Shown: piece by piece, positions 1 through 3,597 of the stretch | How the letters are laid out: each line of letters opens with the position of its first letter | How positions within the stretch are numbered: the first letter of the stretch is position 1 | Position numbers and translations under genes: made by a program | NCBI GenBank assembly: GCA_965218095.1 | Contig: OZ244587.1 | Coordinates: 1,568,001-1,632,000, forward strand | Length of the DNA stretch: 64,000 bases | DNA from: Candidatus Poribacteria bacterium | GTDB taxonomy: Bacteria; Poribacteria; WGA-4E; PCPOR2b | Direction of reading: 5' to 3' | The notes under the pieces: generated by a model | Databases searched by the model: none | Seen by the model: the letters and a program-made list of their open reading frames with translations, nothing else | What the model was told of the DNA's origin: nothing

Positions 1-2137
1 GTGCTTGGGTGAGCCAGCCCTCTACATCGGCAGGAGTGATCATCGCCAGTGCCTGTGGATGCGCCGAAGGTGCGGCTGCCGCGTTGCCTATTGCGCCGGC
101 AACCTGAACCAAGTCTGCAATATCCACAACGCCATCCCGGTTGACATCCGCCTCATTTTGTCCCGTCTGTCCCAAACGCAATGCAACCAGGGCTAAATCC
201 AAGATGTTCACCGCCCCATTCCTGTTGACATCCTCAGCAAGTGTCGGCGGTTTTTCCCCGGTGTCCGGTGGCGGTGCAATATCCCACAGAAGCACCGTGC
301 CGTCCACACTCCCACTTGCGAGGGTTCTGCCATCGGAGCTGAAAGCAACGCTATTGACCCTAGACGTATGTCCGGTAAGGGTTTTGATGTGCTTGCCCGT
401 GCCAACATCCCACAAGCCAATCGTATTATCCCACCCCCCACCTGCGAGGGTCTTGCCATCGCGACTGAAAGCAACGCTTTCAATAACGCTTTCGACGCCA
501 TACTGACTCCCGTGGATGGTTCTCACTTCCTCACCGGTGGTAACATCCCACAGGCGAATGGTATTGTCCCACCCCCCACTTGCGAGGGTCTTGCCATCGC
601 GACTGAAAGTAACGCTGAGGACATGACCTCTATGGCCGAAGAGGGGTTTCAGGACATCCCCGGTGGCAACATCCCACAGGACAACGGCAGAGTCTCGCCC
701 CCCGCTTGCGAGGATCTTTCCATTGGGGCTGAAAGCGACATTCTCGACGCCAGCACCGTGTCCGTAGAGGGTTCCCAGGCGTGCCCCGGTGGCGACATCC
801 CACAAGCGGATGGTATCGTCCTCACTTCCACTCGCCAACCTGCTGCCATCGGGACTGAAAGCAATGGTTATCAGATAAGCGCTATGCGCGACGAGGGTTT
901 TCAGGTGCGCCCCGGTGTCAGCATTCCACAGGCGAACGGTATTGTCCTGACTTCCACTAGCGATTGTGCCCCCATCCGGGCTGAAAACAACGATGTCCAC
1001 ATCATCCGTGTGCCCGACGAGGACGTGCTGGAGTTGTCCTGTTTCGGTATTCCACACGCGGATGGTTTGGTCCCAGCTCCTACCGATGAGCGGGCGGTCA
1101 TCCGGACTGAAAGCAACGCTCAGGACACCACTCTCATGCCCAGTAATGGTTTCGATGGGCTCACCCGTATCAACATCCCACAGGCGGACAGTCGCATCCC
1201 CCCCCCCACTTGCGAGTGTGCGGCTATCCCGACTAAACGCAACTCTGTAGACATCAGCCGTATGTCCGGTAAGGGTTTTGACGGGCTCGCCCGTGACAGC
1301 ATCCCACAAGCGGATGGTATCGTCCTCACTCGCACTCGCCAGCGTGCGGCCATCCGGAGAAAAAGCGAGTTTGTAGACAATGGAGGTATGCCCGGTAAGG
1401 GTTTCGATGGGCTCGCCGGTGTCAACATCCCACAGACGGATGGCCGCGTCGTAATCTCCACTGGCGAGCGTGCCTCCCCGACTGAAAGCAACCGTCCGGA
1501 CAAGAGACGTATGCCCGGTAAGAGTTTTGATGGGCTCGCCGGTGTCAACATCCCACAGACGGACGGTTTGGTCCCAACTCCCACTGGCGAGCGTACCCCC
1601 ATCCGAGCTGAAAGCAACGCTAGTGACCCAATCCGCATGTCCGGTAAGAGTTTTGATGGGCTCGCCCGTGGTAGCATCCCACAGGCGAACTGTCGCGTCG
1701 TAACTCCCGCTGGCAAGCATGCCCCCATCCGAGCTGAAAGCAACGCTCCGGACACCACTCTCATGCCCGGTAAGGGTTTTGATAGTCTCGCCCGTTGTAA
1801 CATCCCACAAGCGAACAGTATCGTCCCAACTCCCACTGGCAAGTGTACCCCCATCCGGGGAATACGCCATAGCAGAAATCGTTTCCGTATGCCCAGTGAG
1901 CAAGTCAACCTCTTGAAGGGTCGCCGCATCATAGAGCCAAATACCGATGGAACTGGCGACCGCGAGCCGAGTGCCGTCCGGAGGCGAATACTGAAGCCCA
2001 GATATCCACCCTTTACCAAATCGCGCAGTGGCACCTTCGGGTAACTGCCACTGAGGGTTATCTTGGGCAAAGCTGTTTGATAGAAATAGAGCAGAGACTA
2101 ACAATAGGGTAAAGGTAAAAAACATCCTCTTTTTCAT
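1..2137 (-). CDS. Secreted WD40-repeat protein with C-terminal dockerin-like domain (runs off the left edge; absent from the ORF track)
   Basis: Manual translation from ATG 2137: MKKRMFFTFTLLLVSALFLSNSFAQDNPQWQLPEGATARFGKG (signal peptide), then many GH..V.SVAFSPDG.TLASG..D.TIRLWD repeats, then dockerin pair EDVNRNGAVNILDL / ADVNRDGVVDIADL near 100-235. Confidence 0.9.
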   Translation of the reverse strand, partial: MKKRMFFTFTLLLVSALFLSNSFAQDNPQWQLPEGATARFGKGWISGLQYSPPDGTRLAVASSIGIWLYDAATLQEVDLLTGHTETISAMAYSPDGGTLASGSWDDTVRLWDVTTGETIKTLTGHESGVRSVAFSSDGGMLASGSYDATVRLWDATTGEPIKTLTGHADWVTSVAFSSDGGTLASGSWDQTVRLWDVDTGEPIKTLTGHTSLVRTVAFSRGGTLASGDYDAAIRLWDVDTGEPIETLTGHTSIVYKLAFSPDGRTLASASEDDTIRLWDAVTGEPVKTLTGHTADVYRVAFSRDSRTLASGGGDATVRLWDVDTGEPIETITGHESGVLSVAFSPDDRPLIGRSWDQTIRVWNTETGQLQHVLVGHTDDVDIVVFSPDGGTIASGSQDNTVRLWNADTGAHLKTLVAHSAYLITIAFSPDGSRLASGSEDDTIRLWDVATGARLGTLYGHGAGVENVAFSPNGKILASGGRDSAVVLWDVATGDVLKPLFGHRGHVLSVTFSRDGKTLASGGWDNTIRLWDVTTGEEVRTIHGSQYGVESVIESVAFSRDGKTLAGGGWDNTIGLWDVGTGKHIKTLTGHTSRVNSVAFSSDGRTLASGSVDGTVLLWDIAPPPDTGEKPPTLAEDVNRNGAVNILDLALVALRLGQTGQNEADVNRDGVVDIADLVQVAGAIGNAAAAPSAHPQALAMITPADVEGWLTQA

Positions 2138-2192
2138 TGAGATTCATTCTCCGTTTTGAGTCGTTGGTTCTGAGGTATATTCTTAGGAGTCA

Positions 2193-2236
2193 GAGCAGGG
2201 AAGGAAGCAGCGCACCCGCTCCCCTGCTCGCTTTTT
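2193..2236. terminator. GC-rich hairpin between the DUF5069-like gene and the WD40 gene; possible intrinsic terminator
   Basis: gagcaggg...ccctgctc inverted repeat, followed by a T run on the + strand. Confidence 0.35.
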
Positions 2237-2242
2237 CGATAC

Positions 2243-2488
2243 TTATCGATTGAGTGTTTTCATCGCGGCAATCATGTCGTCGTCTGACGGGTTGCTTTTC
2301 ACCATCTCAACAAACTCGTCAGCGTCTAGCTTGTGTTCCTCCAGGAACTTTTTGTCCTGCGGTCACGGGTAGATGTATTCACCGATAGTACCGTTCAACT
2401 TGGCGCGCGCCTTATCGGTAACCCGCGCCAACCACCAGTACCCTCCAATGAGCATATCCCGATGCCGTGGTTTCCAATCGAGTCCCAT
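2243..2488 (-). CDS. DUF5069-like small protein (81 aa) with in-frame TGA at codon 42; candidate selenoprotein
   Basis: RBS AAAGGAGGTG upstream; MGLDWKPRHRDMLIGGYWWLARVTDKARAKLNGTIGEYIYP[TGA 2365-2363]PQDKKFLEEHKLDADEFVEMVKSNPSDDDMIAAMKTLNR*; matches recalled pattern PR...GGY..L.R..DKARA...GT.GEY.YPCP.D..FL. Confidence 0.8.
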
Positions 2489-2517
2489 TTAATTCACCTC
2501 CTTTATCAGGTATTAAG

Positions 2518-2555
2518 TTCTCTCAGAAAATGGAAAAGCCTGAAAACACTGAATT
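2518..2555. repeat. Partial copy of the MITE end found between secD and secF
   Basis: tctcagaaaatggaaaagcctgaaaacactgaat matches the reverse complement of 17661-17698. Confidence 0.6.
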
Positions 2556-2639
2556 TGTCGAACTGTCAAATGATTCCTTCCCCCCACTTACGATCCGACT
2601 TGCTGAGAAAGCTCAAGACGTTTGTAATGAGACAATTCA

Positions 2640-3200
2640 TCGCTATCTGAGATGCGTAAGGTATGCACTACGGCAAACCAAGAATTTCTTCGGGGCGTTG
2701 AACTTGAGGCAGCAGCATATCGTGAAAGGCGGATGCAGATTTTACTGCATGTCCGCAAGCCGCTGTTGGATTGCCGTCTGTCGTGCGTTCCACAGGTTGA
2801 TCATCGGCTAATCGAACATCACTACAACGTGCATGCCCAAGATTAACGGATTTAAACCTTTCCCGAAAGTGGCAAGGGCTAACACGCTCGCATCTTCGGA
2901 CGTAAACCTATAGTTGCGCAACCGTCTCGCCCACCTCTTAAAGTACCGCATCGGCTGTGCGACTTGTACGCGACTGCGAAAGAGGCGAATGAGTGCAGCA
3001 TAGCGTAGAAAGTGTTCCAAACGTCGCAATAGCTTCTCCGTTTGCGGCACAACAAACAGATCAATGCCTTGAGCATTTGCGCGGCTTAATAAGTCGAATG
3101 CCAGCAACTTCGCATCAGTTTGTCAGTTTTAACAATCCTTGCAAGATGTATTACGCTGTGACTTTATCGAGCAGGCACTGCCTCCGGTGAAACCTCCACT
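2640..3200 (-). pseudogene. Degraded PIN-domain-like toxin gene
   Basis: Fragments CLLDKVTA*YIL..., ORF 2808-3107 with FTSEDASVLALATFG and VVMFD*PMI; several stops and frameshifts; overlaps the end of the upstream small gene. Confidence 0.45.
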
Positions 3201-3543
3201 TCCTCAAGGTCTTCGAGGTCAGTTTCTGTCCATTTCTCCCACAGTTTAGTCTGCTCAGATTCGGGAAGATCAAGATATTCCCCTAATGTCAAACCATCTA
3301 AGAACGGCTCGTCGAGACTGAGCGGTTGGCCCCAATGGCTTGCAAAACCTCCTCTTTCAGAGATTTGACGGTCCCACGAGCGTTTTCTATCGTTCTCTCC
3401 GTTTGGATTACGTCCTTCTGTAACTCCGGCGCCAGCTTGAGCAGTTGCTGTCGATCTTCGGAACTCATCTGTTTAATCAAAGCCGCAATCTGTTTGAGAC
3501 TGACGGGTAAGGCGAATACTGTCTCTGGCTCCCGCCTTATCAT
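3164..3543 (-). pseudogene. Putative antitoxin partner, frameshifted near 3330
   Basis: ORF 3298-3543 continues in another frame after a G run as PLSLDEPFLDGLTLGEYLDLPESEQTKLWEKW...PAR*. Confidence 0.45.
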
Positions 3544-3597
3544 TACAAGGCATTAGGGTAAAACGCCTCCTAAGTACCTAATACCTAACACCTACTT

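Follow-up and report, generated by a model that had tools for sequence, protein, structure and literature searches.

A conserved in-frame UGA, very probably read as selenocysteine, in a short DUF5069 gene of Candidatus Poribacteria

A small gene on the minus strand of a Candidatus Poribacteria genome (window 2488..2243) is very probably a real selenoprotein gene, in which the TGA at codon 42 would be decoded as selenocysteine (Sec) to make an 81-residue short DUF5069 protein. The window is a stretch of 64,000 nucleotides (C1:1568001-1632000) in the one-contig 6.35 Mb assembly of this sponge-symbiont bacterium. Computed evidence carries the reading and consists of a conserved UGA, a Sec/Cys pair among homologs, selection on both sides of the UGA, nucleotide constraint on a downstream hairpin, and Sec machinery in the genome. 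In the proposed mechanism, the intragenic hairpin GUUCC-UGGA-GGAAC would act as a bacterial SECIS element and recruit SelB with Sec-tRNA(Sec) to the ribosome, and the product is predicted to be a domain of four helices that resembles the N-terminal half of PDB 3OMD, with Sec placed before helix 2; SelB binding to the hairpin and the chemistry of the Sec residue are steps that we infer. The gene would add a well-supported family to the prokaryotic selenoproteome, present in 160/176 genomes of a sponge-symbiont candidate phylum, and would give a first functional lead for DUF5069, an orphan family with a solved structure. Such families still turn up by computation; this case is unusually clean and its putative SECIS minimal. 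The features of the locus are as follows.

2243..2488, minus strand: probable selenoprotein gene, 81 codons plus TAA, short DUF5069 form (profile match and orthologs in 41/41 genomes)
2495..2503, minus strand: Shine-Dalgarno sequence AAGGAGGTG, with a gap of 8 nt from GGAGG to ATG
2488-2486, minus strand: start codon ATG
2363..2365, minus strand: TGA, codon 42, candidate Sec codon, aligned with the Cys of 3omd_A
2335..2348, minus strand: bSECIS-like hairpin GUUCC-UGGA-GGAAC (RNAalifold consensus), stem from 15 nt after the UGA, loop at +20 to +23
2245-2243, minus strand: stop codon TAA
3598..6813, minus strand: UPF0182 membrane protein gene, same-strand upstream neighbour (PF03699, E 4.8e-238), context only
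2-2137, minus strand: WD40-repeat protein of more than 712 residues, downstream neighbour

The coding frame reads ...GEYIYP-TGA-PQDKKFLEE... around the UGA and stops only about 105 nt short of the next gene; the read-through protein of 81 residues is MGLDWKPRHRDMLIGGYWWLARVTDKARAKLNGTIGEYIYP-U-PQDKKFLEEHKLDADEFVEMVKSNPSDDDMIAAMKTLNR. The original prediction had described a strong ribosome-binding site and an 81-codon frame reading GEYIYP-TGA-PQDKKFLE, and both are borne out at window 2488..2243 on the minus strand; GGAGGTG also lies 5' of the ATG in 36/41 orthologs (counted by eye). Its assignment of the protein to DUF5069 holds in a profile search (PF16798, E 1.7e-16, 61 bits against a gathering threshold of 27), and the family motif that it gave as GEY.Y.CP.D..FL appears in 3omd_A as GEYTYNCPLD, with Cys opposite the TGA. 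PF16798 is the sole significant Pfam match of the read-through protein, and NCBIfam has no family that matches it at E <= 1. The PF16798 match covers only profile positions 4-75 of 133, so the gene lacks the full DUF5069 domain, and this short form is common to all orthologs, those with Cys included.

The TGA was expected to recur in relatives while others have Cys, and both forms occur: 160 genomes have TGA and eight genomes, all of one family, have Cys. A six-frame search of a first set of 41 genomes (the source genome and 40 relatives from four families and 14 genera of one order) gave an ortholog in 41/41, at identities from 99 down to 65% and each with exactly one TGA; all of these orthologs start with ATG, have the TGA at codon 42 and are 80-98 residues long. 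For public genomes, one per GTDB species was scanned and the best 80 of 181 relatives were kept; TGA occupies codon 42 in 80/80 of these loci, whose titles name Candidatus or uncultured Poribacteria, or an uncultured bacterium. Because the TGA stands at the same codon in 41/41 relatives and 80/80 public loci, the frame that contains it is beyond chance. Across the phylum, 168/176 genomes have an ortholog match at E <= 1e-16. One TGA is present in all 150 of the phylum-wide matches listed, and the other 19 comprise five already typed as TGA forms, the TGA forms of G047, G113, G160, G164, G068 and G069 (that of G113 is cut by a contig end) and eight stop-free forms in family f8. The phylum totals are 160 genomes with the TGA form, eight with the Cys form and eight without a match at that threshold; the last are two of family f2 (81% complete), three of f5, two of f10 and one of f11. 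The UGA is conserved in 160/168 ortholog-bearing genomes, and the TGA form persists down to 56-65% identity. Orthologs are confined to one candidate phylum in the searches made here. The orthologs of G069 (L164) and G068 (L167) contain several X residues, which are ambiguous bases in their assemblies.

Comparison of dN/dS on the two sides of the TGA, proposed as a check on the prediction, gives purifying selection downstream as well as upstream. Nei-Gojobori dN/dS for the 41 sequences is 0.082 upstream (codons 2-41) and 0.134 over the 40 columns 3' of the TGA, or 0.098 when the four hairpin codons are left out; with pS at 0.63-0.71 and dS near saturation, these values are rough, and the contrast between pN and pS is plain on both sides. 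Since constraint after the UGA is similar to that before it, the codons after the UGA must be translated. The Pfam DUF5069 match likewise extends across the TGA, and no conserved internal start was found in the 41 sequences, eight of which have Ile in place of Met at column 63.

Bacterial SECIS elements are hairpins within the coding region, immediately 3' of the UGA, with an apical loop that carries G. The hairpin given in the original prediction (GTTCC-TGGA-GGAAC, with 19 nt from the TGA to the loop and G at loop position 2) is exact in every detail; its loop starts at +20 from the TGA, and the second and third loop bases are both G. With the 41 sequences as input, RNAalifold gives GUUCC-UGGA-GGAAC as the sole consensus structure, at -5.6 kcal/mol. 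Invariance at synonymous sites is the strongest evidence for the hairpin: synonymous variation occurs in 26/30 degenerate codon columns with an invariant residue, and the F-L-E-E codons (TTC CTG GAG GAA) are identical at every nucleotide in all 41 sequences, being fixed, it would seem, because they form the hairpin. The exact 12-mer at +15 is found in 78/80 public loci (best 80 of 181), and in each of the two exceptions (C>U in L126 and A>G in L140) a Watson-Crick pair is replaced by G.U. The five inner pairs form in all 81 distinct sequences, with the few changes wobble or compensatory; the fifth and outermost of them is GC in 79, AU in one and GU in one. Of the two outer pairs, one is UA in 51 sequences, AU in two and unpaired in 28, and the other is AU in 43, GC in seven and unpaired in 31, so that many lineages have a 7-bp stem (ATG...CAT, GTG...CAC) and the source genome one of 5 bp. 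Conservation of the hairpin, the absence of which would have told against a SECIS, was found at the nucleotide level and in TGA forms only. The Cys forms of the eight f8 genomes have no hairpin and read FLEK, WLQK, FLER, FLQR, FLKQ or WLRK in varying codons. As the Cys forms have neither the hairpin nucleotides nor the residues, the EE pair appears to be imposed by the RNA and not by the protein.

This hairpin, UGA-specific and conserved as it is, has a weak stem. True covariation is thin because four of the five inner pairs hardly vary, and it could be the sequence and not the structure that is kept invariant. Two copies of the 12-mer are present in the genome, where 0.76 would be expected, and the second copy is out of frame with its nearest upstream TGA. 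An alternative stem, CAGGA/TCCTG, which had also been predicted, is present in the window sequence as described, but it is not conserved across relatives and was rejected, its middle pair being broken in 28/81 distinct sequences with no excess covariation. RNAalifold gives the hairpin as consensus, whereas folding the single sequence favours the alternative stem (CAGGA/UCCUG) as the minimum-energy structure, and the stability of the region in this one sequence does not exceed that of shuffles (z -0.38). An Rfam scan of window 2100-2700 returned no family match, only a chance lncRNA match at E 0.87. The criteria applied to the hairpin (distance and G in the loop) are generally known values and not bSECISearch scores. 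By these, it resembles the E. coli fdhF SECIS and the bSECISearch model in being an intragenic hairpin after the UGA with G in a loop at about 20 nt, and resembles bacterial SECIS elements in being present only where the codon is UGA; it differs from the fdhF type in being very small (5-7 bp and a tetraloop), with no bulged U seen.

A similar apex follows in-frame UGA codons elsewhere in the source genome. The selD gene (C1:5447425-5448348; L021) has an in-frame TGA in CG-U-AAK, and the hairpin after it is CAGUCC-AGUU-GGACUG, with the loop from +18. When the genome was scanned for TGA-N(10-19)-TCCNGNNGGA flanked by open frames, 25 matches came up, three of which are protein-like by eye: selD, the DUF5069 gene and a gene at C1:3538764; the remaining matches, not protein-like, were judged by eye to be chance. 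The third is an AhpC/TSA-like gene (C1:3538389-3539180; L163) with an in-frame TGA in FWRGQY-U-PKD, a PF00578 match that spans the TGA (E 7.7e-19, profile 2-122) and a hairpin UUCUCC-AGUU-GGAGAA 13 nt after the TGA; it is probably another selenoprotein of the source genome. In all three genes the stem is short and is topped by the pairs U-A, C-G and C-G, the loop is a tetraloop whose second base is G, and 13-16 nt separate the UGA from UCC. Only the AhpC/TSA-like gene is an independent instance of the apex, because the pattern was derived from selD and the DUF5069 gene. The DUF5069 gene is thus like selD and the AhpC/TSA-like gene in its apex (UCC-NGNN-GGA), in its stem of 5-7 bp at 13-16 nt from the TGA, and in having a family-model match (Pfam or NCBIfam) that spans the TGA; it differs in its loop, which is UGGA where the other two have AGUU. 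The hairpins of the three genes, of which that of the DUF5069 gene is 14 nt long, give a compact consensus, UCC-NGNN-GGA, that could serve in searches of poribacterial genomes for further selenoproteins.

Sec insertion competes with termination, and the alternative that survives best builds on this: translation would mostly end at the UGA to leave a 41-residue peptide, the hairpin would serve mRNA stability or regulated read-through, and Sec would be a minor product. A hairpin as short and weak as this one would suit such an arrangement. The 39 codons after the UGA are nevertheless constrained like the 40 before it, orthologs with Cys make the full protein, and the same apex follows the UGA in both selD and the AhpC/TSA-like gene, and we regard predominant termination as improbable. 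Decoding of the UGA as Sec remains the preferred reading, and the source genome holds the machinery for it, as was to be checked: selA (605.7 bits), selB (353.7 bits, adjoining tRNA-Sec), selD (371.1 bits, with the one in-frame TGA of its own) and tRNA-Sec (76.6 bits against a gathering score of 47, anticodon tca by ARAGORN) are all present and all above curated cut-offs. Across the phylum, selA is found in 163/176 genomes and in 130/133 high-quality genomes. A selA match at E <= 1e-100 is absent from the TGA-form genomes G006, G048, G070, G077, G080, G082, G112 and G125, all of which are in at least 140 contigs and 73-95% complete; none of the one-contig TGA-form genomes among the 176 is without selA. 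Three genomes of family f5 (G044-G046), two of them 92-95% complete, have neither selA nor the DUF5069 short form, and the Sec trait may have been lost in this lineage.

Decoding of the UGA as another amino acid (Trp, Cys or Gly), whether through a reassigned code or near-cognate read-through, is suggested by database entries, as W stands at the Sec position in 10/16 close homologs. TGA is a normal stop here and not a general sense codon: among the 1373 open frames of the source genome with 400 codons or more, it ends more than either of the other stops (TGA 536, TAA 470, TAG 367), and it terminates 6/41 orthologs of the DUF5069 short form itself. The residue aligned with the UGA in relatives is moreover Cys and not Trp, a dedicated hairpin accompanies the TGA forms only, and the genome has the full Sec machinery, which together leave this alternative very little room. 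We infer that the entries with W, and the 2/16 that end at ...YIYP, are gene-calling artefacts, the W coming from a table in which TGA=W. A last alternative, that a TGY>TGA nonsense mutation lies in a decaying DUF5069 fragment, has in its favour that the frame spans only profile positions 4-75 of 133 and that the seven further DUF5069 domains of the source genome are free of stops, but it is negligible given the same-codon TGA in 160 genomes down to 56-65% identity, downstream dN/dS of 0.10-0.13, a conserved start codon and Shine-Dalgarno sequence, and a short length common to all orthologs, Cys forms too; the caveat of nonsense decay that was attached to the prediction accordingly does not apply to this gene, with the TGA at the same codon in 41/41 relatives and 80/80 public loci.

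Cys homologs align to the UGA in the f8 genomes, in metagenomic proteins, in 3omd_A and in the wider family, and so the claim that Sec replaces a functional Cys stands as far as a Sec/Cys pair is concerned. The eight f8 orthologs read ...YIYP-C-PADK..., with codon 42 TGC in seven and TGT in one, and the metagenomic proteins P0009, P0013 and P0014 are further Cys short forms. A profile search against 1.84 billion representatives gave 497 proteins at E <= 0.001; among the best 150 of these, the aligned column is C in 113/170 DUF5069 domains and S in 27/170, so the aligned Cys is common and not universal, and with Ser in its place in those 27 domains it is not essential to the fold. Thirteen of the best 150 proteins stop directly before the Sec column, which looks like frames cut at the TGA, and two further rows are short fragments. 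The systematic mis-annotation that is exposed here takes the form of database entries cut at the TGA or with W there. Entries with W at the TGA, or cut at ...YIYP with spurious N-terminal extensions, are among P0002-P0016, and mis-annotated representatives are P0015, P0023, P0025, P0026, P0042, P0048, P0065, P0085, P0115, P0129 and P0149. In a maximum-likelihood tree, a branch with values of 82/88 (present in 80% of bootstrap trees) has the 11 Cys short forms together on one side, a pattern that fits a single Sec/Cys switch; the tree is midpoint-rooted and built on only 84 columns, and the direction of the switch is not readable from it. The same tree separates the short forms from four full-length DUF5069 proteins as a clade of their own, with support of 100/96. 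Seven of the eight Cys-form genomes keep selA, and from this it follows that the Cys form is not simply a consequence of loss of the Sec trait and that Sec is dispensable in the short DUF5069 protein.

AlphaFold2 models the protein from a 100-row alignment with mean pLDDT 83.8 and pTM 0.69, and predicts helices at 20-32, 43-51, 56-65 and 69-79. In the model, Sec42 lies directly before helix 43-51 and is followed by Pro43 and the invariant Asp45 (motif Y-P-U-P-x-D). Arg22, Asp25 and Lys26 in helix 1 are invariant or nearly so, and the protein has no other Cys, so that Sec is its sole Cys-type residue. Foldseek against the PDB matches 3omd_A (TMq 0.85, rmsd 1.0, 73 columns) and nothing beyond it, all other hits having E > 2; 3omd_A is also matched in sequence at E 1.2e-14, and the title of PDB 3OMD is 'unknown function protein from Leptospirillum rubarum'. 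The short form shares with 3OMD and PF16798 the same fold and the motifs LARxxDKARA and GxYxYPCPxD, and differs in having Sec for Cys and in comprising the N-terminal half only (81 aa versus about 133-145). The source genome also has one single-domain DUF5069 paralog with the CPxD motif. Tandem DUF5069 proteins at C1:2200777-2202027 and 4807952-4808770 (L025-L028, L030) have three and two domains, in which the motif is GEDSGxD, with Ser in place of the CPxD Cys.

Sec almost always marks a catalytic residue, which makes the single Cys of DUF5069 a site of functional interest. As Sec replaces a catalytic Cys in nearly all selenoproteins, and as a thiolate at a helix N-terminus is activated, Sec42 would be a nucleophilic or redox-active selenolate at the helix N-cap. 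The redox or metal chemistry put forward in the original prediction stays at the level of a hypothesis. The protein would most likely act as a one-Sec oxidoreductase or carry sulfur, selenium or a metal. Four activities would be compatible with this: a peroxidase-like cycle of the one-Cys type, the transfer of persulfide or selenide, catalysis at a Cys/Arg/Asp site like that of arsenate reductase, and metal binding between subunits. A bolder suggestion, which we hold to be rather unlikely, sees in the short DUF5069 proteins a new class of helical, non-thioredoxin, one-Sec redox or transfer enzymes of unassigned chemistry, with the selenolate flanked by invariant Asp, Lys and Arg.

As far as the sources show, the short DUF5069 form is an unlisted selenoprotein family. 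A search of about 8.4 million papers and preprints did not find the name 'DUF5069', and literature on Poribacteria with selenoprotein or selenocysteine has nothing on DUF5069 by title and abstract. The 2026 review PMC13188914 gives, in its main text, 119 prokaryotic selenoprotein families with domain identifiers, most of them defined by NCBIfam models; 'PF16798' has 0 occurrences in that text, and the families of selD and the AhpC/TSA-like gene are listed there as selenoproteins, whereas the DUF5069 form is not. The protein matches none of the Pfam and NCBIfam family models in Table 1 of PMC13188914, a comparison limited to these two kinds of model. It is similar to the DUF-named single-Sec proteins of that table in being small, with one Sec and with Cys homologs, and differs from them in lacking a CxxU or UxxC motif as well as a second Cys, and in being helical rather than thioredoxin-like. 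In the passages covered of the BSepDB paper, the families of which are tabulated in a supplement, there is no mention of PF16798, 5069 or Poribacteria, and the deep-Sep paper, in the part of its text that presents nine new families, has only others than DUF5069. The unlisted status follows from the lack of PF16798 in the main text of PMC13188914, of an NCBIfam match, and of a paper naming DUF5069 among those searched; supplements (e.g., Table S2 of PMC13326102 and that of PMC12013277) could list the family under a different name. A literature search for '3OMD' was irrelevant, as the matches listed concern 3-O-methyldopa or 3-O-methylglucose.

The upstream UPF0182 protein has 1071 residues (PF03699), and a homolog lies upstream on the same strand in 79/80 public loci (best 80 of 181). 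It was not found within 1.5 kb of ten loci (L153-L162), which are the eight Cys forms, the distant Sec form of G047 and the contig-end fragment of G113, and the synteny may be plain inheritance. As part of the bolder, rather unlikely suggestion above, the short DUF5069 protein may work together with the UPF0182 membrane protein, which if true would be a first functional handle for both orphan families, DUF5069 and UPF0182. Downstream frames in the 80 loci resemble, by eye, prephenate dehydratase (60/80) and epoxyqueuosine reductase (44/80), and the WD40 gene is present in 18/80. The neighbours of two DUF5069 paralogs are, by eye, argininosuccinate lyase-, beta-propeller- and methyltransferase-like. 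Assignment of a function from context was rejected, with UPF0182 missing at L153-L162 and no hint from the neighbours of the paralogs.

In four sponge metatranscriptome runs, all of one study, there are contigs over about 2152-2506 of the window, on both sides of the TGA, with no cover in bins 2520-2645; being contigs only, they show presence and not translation, transcript ends or level. At 90% likeness, no single contig has at least 31 letters on each side of the TGA, except for a diverged contig of 170 nt. The stretch between the DUF5069 and UPF0182 genes (window 2489-3597, about 1.1 kb) contains small minus-strand frames (99 aa at 2808-3107 and 81 aa at 3298-3543) without a Pfam match; it may be an insertion, since UPF0182 ends about 107 nt upstream of the DUF5069 gene in some relatives (e.g., L110). 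The region of the WD40 gene also has long overlapping frames on the other strand or in other frames (e.g., 368-2044, plus strand, 558 aa), which probably arise from the repeats and are not genes.
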